Shown here in pieces: positions 3,313 through 39,689 of a DNA stretch of 64,000 nucleotides. Source of the DNA: Escherichia phage AV119; sequence record OR352949.1; one strand, 5' to 3'. The position numbers and the translations under genes were made by a program. Below the pieces are notes generated by a model. That model searched no databases and was not told where the DNA came from. It saw only the letters and a program-made list of their open reading frames with translations. Position 1 is the first letter of the stretch. Each line of letters starts with the position of its first letter.

Positions 3313-3368
3313 CGTTTTTCCTTTTTGTTAACAGATGAATTAATAATAACAAATAATTCTTAAAGCAT

Positions 3369-3677
3369 TTATTTACCAATAAATTGAAGCAAATGCTCAA
3401 CTTTCATACCATTAACAGAAATCAATTTGTCAATAGAAAAACCTCGCCATGCGCCAAGTTCAACATCAAATATTGGAATCATGTCAGTAGATTCTTTCCG
3501 AGTAGATTCAGTCAATTTACCAGTTTGCATGGTTGGCATAAAGTCTGCATCACGCGTACCTTTCATAGTACGAATAGTACCATCAGACTTTTCAAAAACT
3601 ACGTTTGAAACACCCATGGACAGTTTAGTTTTCAAAATTTCACGAATTGCTACTTTCTGCTCAGTTGTCAGTTTCAT
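3369..3677 (-). CDS. hypothetical protein (102 aa), T4 31.1-like
   Basis: co-oriented ORF between 31 and cd. Confidence 0.55.
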   Translation of the reverse strand: MKLTTEQKVAIREILKTKLSMGVSNVVFEKSDGTIRTMKGTRDADFMPTMQTGKLTESTRKESTDMIPIFDVELGAWRGFSIDKLISVNGMKVEHLLQFIGK

Positions 3678-4830: not shown

Positions 4831-5063
4831 AGTACGCCATACACCCTTTGTGCTTCAACTAATCCATCAAAATCCAATTTGAGATGTGTTATTTGGTCAC
4901 CATCACCTGGATTCACAATTACTAATACTGAACGAGGAGTTTCGGTAATAACACGAACCGATGTTTCTGGAAATCGTTCAGAAACCTTATTTACCAATTC
5001 CTGAGCAAATAGTTTAACTTTTTCTTGGAATTCTTTAACAGTAATTGGTTTTTCACTTAGCAT
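4827..5063 (-). CDS. hypothetical protein (78 aa), cd.2-like
   Basis: co-oriented ORF. Confidence 0.55.
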   Translation of the reverse strand: MLSEKPITVKEFQEKVKLFAQELVNKVSERFPETSVRVITETPRSVLVIVNPGDGDQITHLKLDFDGLVEAQRVYGVL

Positions 5064-5124
5064 TTTGTTTTCCTCATTTGTTTGGTAGAGCTATAATATC
5101 ACAACTCTACCATAAAGTAAACCA

Positions 5125-5406
5125 TTAAATTGCTTTGAATTCTGATGTCTGTGATTCAAAGCGAATATCGCCTTTGATGACTAGCTCAGCATCAAGACCG
5201 AATACGACAATGATATGCGCGGAACCCGGATACAGTTGAATAACAACAGAATCTACTTGATCAGGAAGCAAAGTGTTCAATACATGAGTCACTTGAGCAT
5301 GAATTCGAAGCTCGGCTGCGTTATCAAGCTTTTCAAACATATTATTAGCGATAATTTGACTAAACACTACTTCTACGATTTTAGAATAAGTCGGAAACAT
5401 ATTCAC
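5125..5406 (-). CDS. hypothetical protein (93 aa), cd.3-like
   Basis: co-oriented ORF. Confidence 0.55.
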   Translation of the reverse strand: MNMFPTYSKIVEVVFSQIIANNMFEKLDNAAELRIHAQVTHVLNTLLPDQVDSVVIQLYPGSAHIIVVFGLDAELVIKGDIRFESQTSEFKAI

Positions 5407-34420: not shown

Positions 34421-35056
34421 TCACAGTTCAGATGCTACAGTGATTACAGCTTCAATGTTTTCTGCCGAGCGTTTAATGTCAAGATACACATTACCGTTTT
34501 TAGCGATTTTACATGACATTCCGATATCAGTAAATTTCTGAATATGATGTTCCATCATTTTGTATCCAAAAATTCGCATATTTCCATTATTGTTAATTTC
34601 AAAATTACGAATTCCGTGAGTGCGTTTTTCTAAAATGGCAAGATAATTACTACGATAAGTTTCAACCTTTTTAAGAACAAATCCATTTTCATCTAAAAGT
34701 TTTAACATGAGGTCTTTATCTTCTTCCATATCAGAAGTAATCTCACGAGCTTTACGAGTTGCTCGTTTTTTCAGTAGTTCCGGAGCATTTTCCTGCGCGT
34801 ATAAAGTTGCTGCGTTTGAAATAATATCTTGAGCTTCACCTGTAATGATTAATCCATCACCAGATTTCTCCACCAGGCCTTTTTTAATCAATACCCCAAT
34901 ATTACTATTAACTACTGCGTTACCTAAATCTGGATGCACCTCACGAACTTCTGCGGCTGTAATGAAATCTTTCTTAGCAATAGTAATTAAAATCGCAGCA
35001 GTTTTTTCATTCAGAACATCGTTAGAAGCTTTGATGATGTAAGTCACTTTAGACAT
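34421..35056 (-). CDS. motA: MotA middle-transcription activator
   Basis: 211 aa, matches T4 MotA. Confidence 0.92.
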   Translation of the reverse strand: MSKVTYIIKASNDVLNEKTAAILITIAKKDFITAAEVREVHPDLGNAVVNSNIGVLIKKGLVEKSGDGLIITGEAQDIISNAATLYAQENAPELLKKRATRKAREITSDMEEDKDLMLKLLDENGFVLKKVETYRSNYLAILEKRTHGIRNFEINNNGNMRIFGYKMMEHHIQKFTDIGMSCKIAKNGNVYLDIKRSAENIEAVITVASEL

Positions 35057-35160
35057 TTTAATCTCCGTTTCAGTTCATTTATTTGATAGGTCTATAGTAT
35101 CATGTTTAAAGCAGAAGTAAACACTTTTTGCACTCTTTTTCAAGAGCTCTAATAAAGTAC

Positions 35161-35388
35161 TTACTTAATGTTCAGATTACGAACTTCGATTTCGTCTTCA
35201 TGGGCAAAATCAAACTGTTTGAATTCTGTGTCACCTTTAAATTTAAAAATCATTGTGAAGAAAGTCAGAACACCAGGTTTTTCTTCACGAACTCCACAGA
35301 TATCATATTCAATACCATCTACAACCAGTTTGTTAGCAGTCAGAGCATTTTTAGCTTTAACGATTTCGTTTTCGATTTTAAATTTCAT
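35161..35388 (-). CDS. hypothetical protein (75 aa), motA.1-like
   Basis: co-oriented ORF downstream of promoter 35445..35467. Confidence 0.55.
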   Translation of the reverse strand: MKFKIENEIVKAKNALTANKLVVDGIEYDICGVREEKPGVLTFFTMIFKFKGDTEFKQFDFAHEDEIEVRNLNIK

Positions 35389-35444
35389 TTTTTGTATCTC
35401 CGGGTTGTTTGTTTCAGTTCATTTATTTGATAGTTGTATAGTAC

Positions 35445-35467
35445 CACAGTATGCTTTGGTTGTAAAC
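35445..35467 (-). promoter_or_regulatory. early-type promoter (GTTTAC-N17-GGTACTATAC)
   Basis: near-identical to promoter at 18403..18435. Confidence 0.45.
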
Positions 35468-35492
35468 CGTTTTGTGAAAAAATTTTTGAAAT

Positions 35493-35518
35493 AAAAAAGG
35501 GAGAGCCGAGGCTCTCCC
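35493..35518 (-). terminator. rho-independent terminator (gggagagcc-gag-ggctctccc + U-tract)
   Basis: 9-bp stem preceded by A6 on plus strand. Confidence 0.55.
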
Positions 35519-35523
35519 TAAAA

Positions 35524-35673
35524 TTACTGCATGACTGTGATAACTGTCATGATAACACGTTGAATTCCGAACGCAAGAAGACCTCCTGCTACGGCAGGAA
35601 CAACACCTAAACCCGCCAGTAAAATGCCACCAGATACTAATGCAGCGCTTGTGATACCAATGAATGGACTCAT
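35524..35673 (-). CDS. small hydrophobic membrane protein (49 aa), translationally coupled to gene 52
   Basis: ATG overlaps gene 52 stop (ATGA); Gly/Ala-rich TM helix; not in ORF track. Confidence 0.45.
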   Translation of the reverse strand: MSPFIGITSAALVSGGILLAGLGVVPAVAGGLLAFGIQRVIMTVITVMQ

Positions 35674-36998
35674 TTGATTTCCTCTAAATCTTTGGTGTAT
35701 TCTGTAACTACATCAGTAGTTTTCCAATATTCGTTTTCTTCTTTTTTGGCTTTAGCTTCTTCAGCAAGTTTCTTTGCTTCGTCGGAAGTCATATGAAAAA
35801 TGTTCATTCCAACTAGTTTATCAACATAAGAAGAATACACATCAATTTTAGAAAGTTCTTCGGTCAGTTCTTTGCGAGTTTTACCTTGTACAACAATTTC
35901 ACCTGAAATTACTTTCTTAATGAAATGTGCCTTGGCAAAAGCTAAACGAAATGCTGATTCAGTTTCTTTGATTTTGTTATCAATTCGTTTTTGGACATAA
36001 GTTTTACGAACTTCAACGAAGTCTTTGATTAAATCAACTACATTATCGTAAACTTGCAGCTTTCCTTTCTCATTAATGACGGTAATATTCTGGGAACGAC
36101 GCTCAATCAACCCGAAGTCTTTCATAATTTTTGCATGGCGTTCTTCTTCATTATCGCTCAAAGAGTATTCTTTTCGGAATTTAACTTTGAAGCCAAAGCC
36201 ATGCTCACCACAAGCATCATCCCATGTAATGAAGCCTTTATCTTCAAGCGGGTCTAAGATTTTACTCACATAAGTTTCACGATCATACTTATATGGAATC
36301 TCAGTGATATGCATTTGAGTTCGTGAAGTAAACTTATATGTTCCACGAATTTCATATTGCCCATCAATTTCAACGACTTCACCACGAAATTCTGGGAATT
36401 CTACCTTCGGTTTAGTTACTTTCTTTCCTTGAAGAGCTTGCAGTACAGCTTTCTTGACAGAAGAAACACTATGAGGAAGAATGTAAGTTGCATAACCAGT
36501 TGCAATACCGGAAACGCCATTAAGAAGAACAGTAGGAATAATAGGCAAATAGAAAGCAGGCGGAATGTGTTCTTTATCTTGATGTACTGGAGCATATTCA
36601 GTATCTTTATATACGTTATAGAAATTTTTACTTACACGAGCAAAAATATAACGACTTGCTGCTGCCTTTTGGACAGTACGAGAACCAAAGTTTCCTTGAC
36701 CGTCTAACAGAGGAAAGTTATTATTCCAAGTGTTAGCCATCAAAGCACCTGCGTCTTGCGCAGAGTTTTCACCATGATGATATCCAAGGTCAGCTACACC
36801 GCCTGCGATAGAAGCGAGTTTGTGAAACTTATCTTTATTTCCTCGTGCCAAATCAAGAGCTCGAGCAATAACAAATCGTTGAACTGGCTTAAATCCGTCA
36901 ATCATATTTGGAATGGCACGATTTTCAACCGTGTACATAGCATAAGCCAATGCTTCATTATCAATGATACTTTTTAAATCACGATTATTCAGTTGCAT
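35670..36998 (-). CDS. 52: DNA topoisomerase II medium subunit (GyrA-like)
   Basis: 442 aa, same length as T4 gp52. Confidence 0.92.
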   Translation of the reverse strand: MQLNNRDLKSIIDNEALAYAMYTVENRAIPNMIDGFKPVQRFVIARALDLARGNKDKFHKLASIAGGVADLGYHHGENSAQDAGALMANTWNNNFPLLDGQGNFGSRTVQKAAASRYIFARVSKNFYNVYKDTEYAPVHQDKEHIPPAFYLPIIPTVLLNGVSGIATGYATYILPHSVSSVKKAVLQALQGKKVTKPKVEFPEFRGEVVEIDGQYEIRGTYKFTSRTQMHITEIPYKYDRETYVSKILDPLEDKGFITWDDACGEHGFGFKVKFRKEYSLSDNEEERHAKIMKDFGLIERRSQNITVINEKGKLQVYDNVVDLIKDFVEVRKTYVQKRIDNKIKETESAFRLAFAKAHFIKKVISGEIVVQGKTRKELTEELSKIDVYSSYVDKLVGMNIFHMTSDEAKKLAEEAKAKKEENEYWKTTDVVTEYTKDLEEIK

Positions 36999-37002
36999 AA
37001 AT

Positions 37003-37143
37003 TTACCATACTAGTGAATGTAGTGCCATAATAACATCAGAAATGAAAAGCACGACTTGAATTAATCCGAACATTATTCCGTAATATAATGCTATCAATA
37101 AAATAGCAAGGGCTAATGAATAGCCCAAGATTTTCTTAATCAT
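37003..37143 (-). CDS. small hydrophobic protein (46 aa), 52.1-like
   Basis: ATG overlaps ac stop (ATGATTAA); hydrophobic; not in ORF track. Confidence 0.4.
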   Translation of the reverse strand: MIKKILGYSLALAILLIALYYGIMFGLIQVVLFISDVIMALHSLVW

Positions 37144-37294
37144 TAGTAGATAACAACACAAATGTTAAATATGCACACATACCCTGAGCTAAAGCTTGCG
37201 AAAACACACTGCTGGCATCAATACAGATAGTTAAAACACATGCTACTATCCAACAAATAAATGAAATAACTCCTAATAATTTTGCGATATTCAT
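37136..37294 (-). CDS. ac: Ac-like small membrane protein (52 aa)
   Basis: size and position between stp and 52 match T4 ac; hydrophobic. Confidence 0.5.
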   Translation of the reverse strand: MNIAKLLGVISFICWIVACVLTICIDASSVFSQALAQGMCAYLTFVLLSTND

Positions 37295-37301
37295 ATTTTC
37301 C

Positions 37302-37382
37302 TCACTGGCGTCCGAAGACGCCTTTAGTTTTAAGATTATTACGATAGAACTGCATCACGTGTTCGTTGTGGAAATTACTCAT
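37302..37382 (-). CDS. stp: Stp peptide (26 aa), activator of host PrrC anticodon nuclease
   Basis: translates to [26 protein letters not shown]; ATG overlaps ndd stop (TAATG). Confidence 0.7.
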
Positions 37383-37840
37383 TAATATGCCTGCAAAACG
37401 AATTTAAAATTATCAGCCAACATACGGTTCATTTCTTCAAGTGTTTGATACTCAGAATGATGATTACGAGTAAACGCTAAAGCTAACTGTCCTTTTCCAA
37501 ATCCCGTCGTCAGAGGTTTCATCTTAGAAGCAGGCAGATAAAATACTGTGTATACCATATTGTTATTTGCAATAGTACGTGCAAGCTGAGACCGACGTTG
37601 ACGAATATGACTTAGAACTGCACTGAATCCTTGCTTAGAACGCTGATTACCTACATAAAATCGTGCAGACACACATGGATTACTAAATGGACGACCATCT
37701 AATTTACTTACTAAAAAATAAAATCCAGGTTTAGATAAAATATCTTTATGCGGAGTTCCCAAAAACCACTCACCACCCTTGATTGTACCAATAACAGTAG
37801 CGCCTGCATTATTCAGATCAGTAACAGTCATGTATTTCAT
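37382..37840 (-). CDS. ndd: Ndd nucleoid disruption protein
   Basis: 151 aa from MKYMTV (ORF track extends to 37888); matches T4 Ndd. Confidence 0.85.
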
Positions 37841-37900
37841 ATTAATTTCCTCTAAATTATTTTCTACTCCAAGGCCGCATGAATACACGCGGCCATTAAA

Positions 37901-38116
37901 TTAATCGTCGCAGTCGACGCTCAATTCCCAAAACTCTTCTACGGTATAAGTTTCAGTATCATTTTCAATACAGAAACGTTCATTACTGTTATTTGCTAAA
38001 GTAGCATTAACTGTCATTTTTTCGCTAGTGCTCTTAAGAGGTGAAATACGAATTAACTGATCACCGTTATCTAAACAAAAAATTTCACCAACTTTTACAT
38101 CTTTAAAACTTTTCAT
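37901..38116 (-). CDS. hypothetical protein (71 aa), ndd.x-like
   Basis: co-oriented ORF. Confidence 0.5.
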   Translation of the reverse strand: MKSFKDVKVGEIFCLDNGDQLIRISPLKSTSEKMTVNATLANNSNERFCIENDTETYTVEEFWELSVDCDD

Positions 38117-38231
38117 AATTCACCTCAAGGAGTATAAAATCCAAACGCAGTTGTTGACCATCCCATCCAATATGGAAAATTTGCACCAATGTAAAACATA
38201 AGAATATAAAACCAACCGCTCAGCAAATTCA

Positions 38232-38429
38232 TCATTTTACACCATTCCAAATTGTTTCAACCACGGATTTTAAACCATTTTGATGAATATCCATTCCGAC
38301 TACTGCCATCAAATAGATTCCAACTACAACTGAACCTAAGGCAAAAATCAGCATGAAAATGAATAAAGCCGGAAAAATATTATCGAAAAACCATTCAATA
38401 AATGTAAAAGCACTGCGTTTACGCTTCAT
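38232..38429 (-). CDS. small membrane protein (65 aa from MKRKRS)
   Basis: RBS GAGGAAAAT before ATG 38429; TM segment. Confidence 0.45.
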   Translation of the reverse strand: MKRKRSAFTFIEWFFDNIFPALFIFMLIFALGSVVVGIYLMAVVGMDIHQNGLKSVVETIWNGVK

Positions 38430-38436
38430 ATTTTCC

Positions 38437-38550
38437 TCACATAAATCCAAAGTAAACGTTTAATACATCAATCATTAAAACGATTGGGAATATACTCAAA
38501 ACTATTAGTATTATAACTACATTCCATATAGCTTTAACAATCTTTTTCAT
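38437..38550 (-). CDS. small membrane protein (37 aa from MKKIVK)
   Basis: RBS GGAGG before ATG 38550, immediately downstream of promoter 38575..38608. Confidence 0.45.
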   Translation of the reverse strand: MKKIVKAIWNVVIILIVLSIFPIVLMIDVLNVYFGFM

Positions 38551-38574
38551 TTTCTGTTCCTCCGTAGTTGATAG

Positions 38575-38608
38575 GGTAATAGTACCACGGAAGAACAGTC
38601 TTGTAAAC
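38575..38608 (-). promoter_or_regulatory. early-type promoter
   Basis: minus strand GTTTAC (38608..38603) and GGTACTATTACC. Confidence 0.45.
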
Positions 38609-38793
38609 AACTTTTTTAAAAATATTCGTAATAAATGTGAATACCAATCACTACTGCCGAAACTTGTGCAACCCACCATGCACACGCAATAAGTACAGAA
38701 TTCAAAATTTTCATAATAACCTCATCACAAAAGTAAATGTTAAACAAATTACTGGAATACTAATTAACCAAACAAAACACCAACATAATGAAC

Positions 38794-39057
38794 TCATAGT
38801 TCAATCTCAACGATTTCCAAGTGTTTTTGTTTTATTGCCTTTTTAACACAATCATGGACTAAATATGACCATGAATCATTATATTCTCCATTAACTAATC
38901 GTTGGAGATCTTCACGTGATGATAAGTAAGGTTGATCTGATTCCCATTTTGATAAAAATACTGCAGTAAAAATATCTCCTTCATCTGTAGTTGAAGTCGT
39001 AAATGCAATAAATTCACCGGTAATTTTATGTTTAGCGTAATAAAATTTAAATTTCAT
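38794..39057 (-). CDS. hypothetical protein (87 aa from MKFKFYY), ndd.x-like
   Basis: RBS GGAGG before ATG 39057; promoter 39083..39114 upstream. Confidence 0.5.
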   Translation of the reverse strand: MKFKFYYAKHKITGEFIAFTTSTTDEGDIFTAVFLSKWESDQPYLSSREDLQRLVNGEYNDSWSYLVHDCVKKAIKQKHLEIVEIEL

Positions 39058-39082
39058 TTTTACTCCTCCGTAGCTGATAGTT

Positions 39083-39114
39083 GTATAGTACCACGGTCCT
39101 TGTGGTATGTAAAC
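39083..39114 (-). promoter_or_regulatory. early-type promoter (GTTTAC-N16-GGTACTATAC)
   Basis: between denB stop and next ORF. Confidence 0.45.
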
Positions 39115-39131
39115 TGTTTTGTGAAAATTTT

Positions 39132-39689
39132 TTAAATGGAAAGATACCATCCATTGTAGTTGCTTTTTCTTACAACCTTACGAAGGTCTTCTCTGTCACC
39201 GATGAACTTCGGAGTGTACTGGATGACACCTGGATGAATTTCTTTAGTGTTGAATATAATTATACAGTCAGCGACTTGATGATTTAGAATGGGCCCTAGA
39301 TTTATTCCAGAACCGTATGGATACTCTCCGCTGCATCCTGTTGTTACAGAAATCCAACGTGAGCCAGTTTGATGTGTCTTAACTTCTACACGAAGCCCAC
39401 AGTATTTTGGATGTGCTAAAACATCCCACGCGTATGTATATGGATCATCGACATCTTCTTGACCTTTATTAACATACCCGCTTAGCCAATCTGCTACAAA
39501 AAACTCTGCGTATACAGCAATACGACATCTTTCAATAACTTCTGCTTTATCCTGGTTCGGGTTTTGTTTTAAAGAGTATCTTGCAGTATCAGCAATTTTG
39601 ACCTTCATTTCACTAGTCAAGTCACTGTTCGATAGGGTAAATGTCGGAATCTGAAATAGTCTCTGTAAACCCGGATTCGTTTTCTGCAT
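39132..39689 (-). CDS. denB: endonuclease IV (dC-specific)
   Basis: 185 aa, matches T4 DenB. Confidence 0.88.
   Translation of the reverse strand: MQKTNPGLQRLFQIPTFTLSNSDLTSEMKVKIADTARYSLKQNPNQDKAEVIERCRIAVYAEFFVADWLSGYVNKGQEDVDDPYTYAWDVLAHPKYCGLRVEVKTHQTGSRWISVTTGCSGEYPYGSGINLGPILNHQVADCIIIFNTKEIHPGVIQYTPKFIGDREDLRKVVRKSNYNGWYLSI

Follow-up and report, generated by a model that had tools for sequence, protein, structure and literature searches.

We examined a stretch of 64,000 nucleotides (nt) from Escherichia phage AV119 (sequence record OR352949.1), referred to here as the window, in which four very short open reading frames (ORFs) had been singled out as a cluster of genes for small hydrophobic membrane peptides. 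All four are present on the minus strand, at 35524-35673 (49 amino acids, aa), 37003-37143 (46 aa), 38437-38550 (37 aa) and 38616-38714 (32 aa), and the computed hydropathy agrees that their products are strongly hydrophobic. Judged by their sequences, they are the copies carried by this Tequatrovirus of the T4 genes motA.1, 52.1, ndd.4 and ndd.5, that is, genes already known. With ndd.2, ndd.2a/3, ndd.6 and ac, they form part of an already known cluster of very small genes for predicted membrane proteins that lies between denB and motA. The interval 35400-38900, in which every gene lies on the minus strand, is 100% identical at the nucleotide level to Escherichia phage AV120, a Tequatrovirus, and 95-99% identical to several hundred other T4-like phages.

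The T4 counterparts (T4p263, T4p265, T4p273 and T4p274 in NC_000866) show 94-98% amino acid identity over the shared length, with the same gene order and the same overlaps with their neighbours; T4 and phage WilhelmHis served as annotated references for the order. MotA.1 is identical to the T4 peptide at 48 of 49 positions and matches phrog_3487 (E 7e-31), and its homologues all carry PF26886 in precomputed annotation. The 52.1 product shares 43 of 46 residues with T4 gp52.1, matches phrog_3595 (E 8e-25) and scores 78.3 bits against the Pfam family DUF7396 (PF24129; cut-off 27) over residues 1-46 of 46. Ndd.5 (31/32 identical; phrog_5011, E 3.9e-26) is encoded between ndd.6 and ndd.4. Ndd.4 agrees with T4 Ndd.4 at 36 of 37 shared residues, the sole change being I/V (phrog_3098, E 2.9e-21), and its gene sits between ndd.5 and ndd.2a/3, as in T4. 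Apart from DUF7396 for 52.1, a Pfam scan with E values up to 0.1 gave nothing for motA.1, ndd.4 and ndd.5. When motA.1 and 52.1 were searched against 5.8 billion proteins, only close phage relatives were found, with no bacterial homologue and no informative name.

The description of these ORFs as unannotated was true of some records only. All four are annotated in T4 NC_000866 and in WilhelmHis, but the record of the identical phage AV120 annotates only two of them and omits 52.1 and ndd.4, along with stp and ndd.6. The omitted genes are all conserved, and these omissions show that micro-genes are dropped in automatic annotation. Where motA.1 is annotated, it is widely mislabelled: it appears as 'transcriptional regulator' or 'flagellar motor protein MotA' in AV120, RB51, PYPS2T and one Shigella flexneri protein record. 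The wrong labels apparently spread from the gene name, since the peptide is unrelated to either protein. In ndd.5, residues 8-11 (38682-38693) form a lipobox-like LIAC that follows a short basic, hydrophobic N-terminus, and one variant has R at -3. This motif may account for the old 'outer membrane protein' label in T4, although it is not strictly kept.

The start of ndd.4 also differs between annotations. T4 Ndd.4 is annotated with 42 aa, beginning MEEQK, whereas the ORF here has 37 aa, and the codon corresponding to the T4 start is ACG, inside the GGAGG ribosome-binding site (38437-38565). The start conserved in all relatives is the downstream ATG that gives 37 aa.

The order of genes through the cluster, all on the minus strand, follows T4 NC_000866. 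From denB (39132-39689), it runs through an ORF of 87 aa (38794-39057; phrog_2390) to ndd.6 (38711-38797; T4 match, phrog_8851), which encodes a hydrophobic peptide of 28 aa and whose start overlaps the stop of the 87-aa ORF. Ndd.6 was not among the ORFs named in the original prediction. Next come ndd.5 and, after a promoter-like sequence described below, ndd.4. These are followed by a membrane-protein ORF of 65 aa (38232-38429; DUF7248) that corresponds to T4 ndd.3 plus ndd.2a, by ndd.2 (38125-38235; an aromatic/hydrophobic peptide of 36 or 35 aa, by T4 and PHROG match), ndd.1 (37901-38116) and ndd (37382-37840), and by stp (37302-37382), whose 26-aa product is identical to T4 Stp and not hydrophobic. 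The acridine-sensitivity gene ac (37136-37294; 52 aa) shares 8 nt at its end with 52.1, which in turn stops 4 nt before the ATG of gene 52. Gene 52 (35670-36998), for the 442-aa medium subunit of DNA topoisomerase II, lies between 52.1 and motA.1. Directly after motA.1, a hairpin at 35498-35519 (9-bp stem with six G-C pairs, then TTTTTATTTC) with its T-run is terminator-like and would mark the end of the transcription unit. Beyond it are a 75-aa ORF (35161-35388; phrog_10955) and motA (34421-35056). T4 lacks the 75-aa and 87-aa ORFs at the cluster edges.

Two further small differences from existing annotations concern the 65-aa ORF and ndd.2. In the T4 reference, one nucleotide is missing from codon 2 of the 65-aa ORF (a 1-nt deletion, ATGAAGCGT to ATGAA-CGT; positions 4926-5140 of the fetched NC_000866 segment), and T4 has separate 'ndd.3' and 'ndd.2a' genes because of this deletion. 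The ORF is intact here, in T6 and in the other Tequatrovirus loci examined. Several Tequatrovirus loci have ATA in place of the first ATG of ndd.2 (38230-38235), and translation probably begins at the second Met codon, which gives the 35 aa annotated in RB51.

For comparative work we used 41 loci around gene 52 from IMG/VR, with gp52 47-100% identical, and further Tequatrovirus records. Since the tblastn filter masks the N-terminal hydrophobic stretch of 52.1 and often left only residues 24-46 aligned, these comparisons were made on the fetched loci. Poor conservation of the reading frames had been named as an outcome that would speak against the original prediction; the frames proved to be open and conserved in related phages. 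Among 13 Tequatrovirus loci, which yielded ungapped copies of 52.1, ndd.4 and ndd.5 in all 13 and of motA.1 and ndd.6 in 12, there was not a single in-frame stop. Segregating sites at codon positions 1/2/3 numbered 5/2/14 in motA.1, 1/2/9 in ndd.5, 3/0/5 in ndd.6, 6/2/4 in 52.1 and 3/1/0 in ndd.4; the changes in the last two genes are few and conservative within the genus.

Synonymous and non-synonymous divergence (pS and pN, Nei-Gojobori estimates) pointed in the same direction, with ratios of non-synonymous to synonymous substitution rates (dN/dS) of 0.04-0.2 over the informative comparisons. Against Dhakavirus, 52.1 has pS 0.43 and pN 0.08 (dN/dS 0.11-0.14), and ndd.4 has pS 0.67 and pN 0.23; dN/dS for ndd.4 was 0.12-0.19. 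Comparison with a diverged Tequatrovirus gave five synonymous changes and one non-synonymous change in motA.1, and six and one in ndd.5. The divergence values of the micro-ORFs fall within the range of motA and denB. From these substitution patterns we conclude that all four ORFs and ndd.6 are protein-coding. A scan of 35000-39500 against Rfam returned sub-threshold chance matches only, and an explanation by RNA genes was dropped. For 52.1 we also considered that its C-terminus might be conserved because of the ribosome-binding site of gene 52. However, in the C-terminal half pS reaches 0.44-0.57 against Mosigvirus and Dhakavirus, with pN at 0.04-0.09; synonymous sites vary freely there, so that the constraint must act on the protein and not on the DNA, and the idea was rejected.

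The depth of conservation differs from gene to gene. Homologues of 52.1 are found wherever gp52 is at least ~67% identical and share the invariant core YYG..(F/Y)G......LFISDVI....S.IW. Homologues of ndd.4 (MKK.LKAIWN...VL.IFP.V.MID) occur in Dhakavirus, Kanagawavirus and other lineages and keep the KAIWN, IFP and MID motifs. MotA.1 has a positional counterpart in Kanagawavirus, a homologue with ~40% identity, and is found at full length in 421 phage records. For ndd.6 there are weak homologues across genera. Ndd.5 is confined to Tequatrovirus and is found at full length in 493 phage records, almost all with at least 90% identity.

All four peptides are strongly hydrophobic. The grand average of hydropathy (GRAVY) and the best 19-residue Kyte-Doolittle window are 1.61 and 2.26 for the Gly/Ala-rich MotA.1, 1.80 and 2.50 for 52.1, 1.87 and 3.06 for Ndd.4, and 1.26 and 2.18 for Ndd.5. 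ORFs of this kind might be thought to be chance products of AT-rich DNA rather than genes, and hydrophobic ORFs of this size do indeed arise by chance. On the coding strand of the window we counted 21 small ATG-initiated ORFs that are this hydrophobic. Twelve of them lie in alternative frames of the same strand inside larger ORFs (for example 36416-36595 inside gene 52), and these are chance products. Moreover, the peptides have gone undetected in T4 proteomics. However, six of the nine non-overlapping ones fall within 35.5-38.8 kb, with ndd.4 as a seventh that the filter missed only because its frame is open further upstream. The frames tile the intergenic gaps without overlapping genes, they are open in hundreds of genomes, and they combine coding-type substitution patterns with amino acid conservation across genera. 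The substitution patterns led us to reject the chance reading, which the comparative data effectively refute and to which we assign a next to negligible probability.

AlphaFold2 monomer models give a single uninterrupted helix for 52.1 (mean predicted local distance difference test score, pLDDT, 96.8) and for MotA.1 (pLDDT 90.2). Beyond the initial MIKK, the N-terminal half of 52.1 varies between homologues and is hydrophobic in a generic way, and residues 20-46 are almost invariant. The polar residues Q29, D36 and S43 are spaced by seven and would, read from the sequence, share one face of the helix. The N-terminus of Ndd.4 (MKKIVK) is basic, and the hydrophobic stretch of this peptide contains a conserved Pro and Asp. 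Polar positions conserved in this way within hydrophobic helices suggest that the helices make specific contacts with other helices and do more than anchor a peptide in the membrane.

Good ribosome-binding sites had been expected upstream of these ORFs, which was borne out for three of the four. MotA.1 has a GAGG 8-11 nt upstream of its start codon, which shares the tetranucleotide ATGA with the stop codon of gene 52; ndd.5 likewise has a GAGG, and its start codon shares an ATGA with the stop of ndd.6; ndd.4 is preceded by GGAGG. No Shine-Dalgarno sequence is recognisable for 52.1, where the coupling to ac through the 8-nt overlap is the only visible translation signal. The expected placement after early promoters or in translational coupling was likewise observed, as motA.1, ndd.5 and 52.1 overlap their upstream neighbours and a sequence scan placed a promoter match of the T4 early type (TTTACA-17-TACTAT, preceded by a TG; 38607-38579, minus strand) just 5' of ndd.4.

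Near-identical early-type promoter matches stand at 39113-39085, 38607-38579 and 35466-35438, before the 87-aa ORF, ndd.4 and the 75-aa ORF, respectively. The 87-aa ORF and ndd.4 even have a whole cassette of promoter, leader and Shine-Dalgarno sequence in common (CCTCCGTAGYTGATAG; repeats at 38559-38574 and 39065-39080). Mobile early-promoter cassettes have been described for T4-type phages, and the CCTCCGTAGYTGATAG cassette appears to resemble them.

Table S2 of PMC9697503 assigns the T4 transcripts of motA.1, 52.1, ac, stp and ndd.2-ndd.6 to the early class. Conservation, codon-position signatures and these T4 early transcripts (PMC9697503) thus uphold the central claim of the original prediction, namely that the ORFs are real small genes which code for hydrophobic helical peptides and belong to an early transcription unit of a T-even phage.

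The genes are dispensable under laboratory conditions. In the HIDEN-SEQ insertion data for T4, all TA sites were found disrupted in motA.1 (11/11), 52.1 (16/16), ndd.4 (18/18), ndd.5 (10/10) and ndd.6 (11/11), which were scored non-essential, and gene 52 was scored essential (bioRxiv 10.1101/2025.11.20.689424). CRISPRi-ART likewise lists the four genes as 'Not Fit' (PMC11879866 supplement). A deposited T4 mutant genome (MZ375356, clone T4_583L, 151.8 kb) has a ~340-bp deletion from inside ndd.5 to inside ndd.2a, by which it loses the end of ndd.5, ndd.4, ndd.3 and the start of ndd.2a (junction at 3364-3373 of the fetched segment). The larger sa-delta-9 deletion, which takes out 52.1 through denB, is viable with about half the yield, and it abolishes the T4-induced stimulation of phosphatidylglycerol synthesis (PMC6071114).

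The functions first suggested for the peptides were superinfection exclusion, lysis timing or modulation of host defence. The neighbourhood is in keeping with this: stp (PrrC/EcoprrI), ac, ndd, denB and rIIB are genes of host interaction, a class for which early expression, dispensability and variation from phage to phage are typical, and the four genes share these traits. The T4 proteins known for exclusion (Imm, Sp) and lysis timing (T, RI, RIII) are also small membrane or periplasmic proteins, and Imm and Sp are made early. However, with lengths of 82-218 aa they are larger than the four peptides, and their genes map elsewhere: exclusion and lysis inhibition in T4 are already explained genetically by imm/sp and t/rI/rIII. 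In Pfam, none of the four matches Imm, Sp, a holin, an antiholin or any other family except domains of unknown function.

The genes reported by HIDEN-SEQ as conditionally essential against RexAB, RnlAB, CBASS, DarTG1 and DarTG2 or in minimal medium are others, not these (bioRxiv 10.1101/2025.11.20.689424), and in the rows sampled from its comparison tables, which cover five systems in one host, q was 1.0. The lysis gene t is essential in the same data set (bioRxiv 10.1101/2025.11.20.689424), unlike the four. Our literature search on the four genes yielded no report of exclusion or lysis timing, and a search by gene name gave the Kutter 2018 review only. Taken together, these results speak neither for nor against such roles, to which we give a low probability.

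The surroundings of gene 52 show a pattern of their own. Seven genera (Tequatrovirus, Mosigvirus, Dhakavirus, Kanagawavirus, Karamvirus, Jiaodavirus and Moonvirus) carry a 44-46-aa DUF7396 homologue that ends 4-6 nt ahead of the ATG of gene 52. In every case the sequence at the junction is TGG-stop, 4-6 nt, ATG, and gene 52 has no canonical Shine-Dalgarno sequence; in lineages where no 52.1 abuts, gene 52 is preceded by GAGG or GGAG. The invariant last Trp codon of 52.1 and its stop (TGGTAA, TGGTAG or TGGTGA) lie 7-10 nt before the ATG (36996-37012 and the equivalent junctions), and may serve gene 52 as a weak GGT(G/A) ribosome-binding element.

At the other end, most lineages have a small hydrophobic ORF across the stop codon of gene 52: motA.1 (49 aa) in Tequatrovirus and Kanagawavirus, 26 aa with a TTG start in Mosigvirus, 34 aa in Dhakavirus (phrog_16377), 23 aa in Jiaodavirus, 45-46 aa in Moonvirus and a related lineage (phrog_13762), 26 aa in one Tegunavirus, and 22 aa and 77 aa in two unplaced lineages. 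These ORFs, 22-77 aa long, belong to at least three unrelated PHROG families, and some copies are without a family. Their segregating sites are biased towards the third codon position in Dhakavirus (4/0/10) and Kanagawavirus (14/7/33). Karamvirus and the group with gp52 at 61-64% identity have no such ORF; in the latter, a terminator follows gene 52 directly. Several of these small genes are unannotated, for example the 23-aa ORF in Klebsiella phage JD18 (Jiaodavirus), the 26-aa TTG-start ORF in Mosigvirus ChristianSchoenbein and the 52.1 homologue in Kosakonia phage 305.

The arrangement was frequent at gene 52 and rare elsewhere in the same loci. Gp52 had a downstream overlapping ORF in 25 of 37 cases, an upstream abutting one in 28 of 37 and both in 24 of 37; other ORFs of at least 120 aa had them in 19, 3 and 0 of 252 cases, respectively, although the loci are phylogenetically related and the counts overstate their independence. 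The pattern suggests a module linked to gene 52. In such a module, 52.1 and the 3' peptide (motA.1 here) would be made in fixed proportion with gp52 by translational coupling and would anchor or regulate topoisomerase II at the inner membrane. Gp52 and gp39 were reportedly found in the membrane fraction in fractionation studies of the 1970s; a literature search on this gave nothing relevant.

The abutting 52.1 in seven genera, the lack of a canonical Shine-Dalgarno sequence exactly where it abuts, the repeated use of unrelated hydrophobic ORFs over the gene 52 stop, their third-position bias and the contrast with the control ORFs all speak for a link to gp52. On the other hand, T4 tolerates transposon insertions along the whole of 52.1 and motA.1, although gene 52 is essential (HIDEN-SEQ), and therefore the topoisomerase can function on K-12 without either peptide. 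CRISPRi-ART also scored the knock-down of 52.1 as 'Not Fit' (PMC11879866), the downstream ORF is missing from the two groups mentioned, the relatedness of the loci weakens the counts, and no small hydrophobic ORFs were found near the other topoisomerase genes of the window. On balance, we regard a topoisomerase-linked role of 52.1 and motA.1 as rather unlikely, and as a secondary but more novel possibility than an action like that proposed for Ac.

Extended to the enterobacterial T4-like phages at large, gene 52 would be the centre of a conserved, translationally coupled three-part module. At the inner membrane, its peptides would anchor the topoisomerase or adjust its activity, and would thereby also affect early origin-dependent replication; the downstream slot would have been refilled by unrelated hydrophobic peptides in different genera. 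We offer this general form as a speculation, with the odds clearly against it.

The same tight coupling could also mean that the ORFs are spacers, translated only to hand ribosomes over to the gene that follows, with peptide sequences that have no function. ATGA overlaps, 4-nt gaps and the absence of a Shine-Dalgarno sequence for 52.1 and gene 52 would fit relay ORFs of this kind, as would the unrelated sequences that replace one another in the slot downstream of gene 52. However, dN/dS is low, and residues of 52.1 and ndd.4 are invariant across genera. MotA.1 is the last gene before the terminator and relays ribosomes to nothing, and the positional analogues are all strongly hydrophobic, which a pure spacer would not need to be. 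A relay without a functional peptide is thus very improbable.

The reading we prefer, with a probability of roughly 55%, is that the four genes encode early, dispensable helical peptides of the inner membrane that act on specific membrane targets, as proposed for Ac. Soon after infection, each peptide would enter the inner membrane of the host as a single long hydrophobic helix, and the inserted peptide would bind and alter a specific membrane-located target. We favour a specific target because polar residues are conserved inside the 52.1 and Ndd.4 helices. The T4-induced stimulation of phosphatidylglycerol synthesis would be a plausible collective phenotype. For Ac, a 2025 preprint proposes that the protein inserts in the membrane and blocks AcrAB-TolC; it describes three clusters of genes for predicted membrane proteins in T4 and assigns ac to one of them (10.1101/2025.06.30.662393).

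Several points weigh against this interpretation. The Ac-efflux model is itself a preprint proposal, and the phosphatidylglycerol phenotype belongs to the 11-gene sa-delta-9 deletion as a whole. The AlphaFold2 monomers are weak evidence on membrane topology, as tiny hydrophobic peptides are nearly always modelled as one helix and a single span is not distinguished from a hairpin. The narrow distributions of ndd.5 and motA.1 would also fit recent, weakly selected genes. A literature search for ribosome profiling of T4 found none. None of these T4 proteins was seen by liquid chromatography-mass spectrometry; according to the authors, Ndd.4 (5 kDa) was probably too small (PMC9697503). The T4 structural-genomics paper left out peptides of less than 50 aa and membrane proteins.

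As first stated, the finding is not new: the genes have stood in the T4 annotation for decades, and the cluster has been recognised as one of predicted membrane proteins. What it brings out is a gap: in its first minutes inside the host, T4 makes about ten tiny membrane peptides that escape standard proteomics and whose genes are often dropped by gene callers, and Ac alone among them has a phenotype. The consistent, coupled hydrophobic flanks of gene 52 provide a concrete and cheaply testable hypothesis. The lipid-synthesis phenotype of sa-delta-9 offers a second assay through which functions could be assigned.

Besides the T4 genes themselves, Ac is among the closest known systems; it is encoded by the sole hydrophobic micro-gene of the cluster with a known phenotype. 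T4 Ac (51 aa) shares with the four peptides the operon, the size class, the hydrophobic helical character, early expression and dispensability, and its gene overlaps 52.1 by 8 nt. It differs in having a genetic phenotype and a proposed target, AcrAB-TolC, where the four have neither, and it belongs to other PHROG families, with no sequence similarity to them. Type I toxin peptides (Hok, TisB, Ldr, Ibs) are likewise tiny, hydrophobic and helical, but the four had no match to them in Pfam, and the Rfam scan gave no antisense RNA. Bacteria also make single-helix regulators of 30-50 aa that bind larger membrane complexes, such as AcrZ, KdpF, CydX and MgtS. The four phage peptides resemble these in size (less than about 50 aa) and in their predicted single hydrophobic helix; there is no homology, and we use the functional analogy as a working model.

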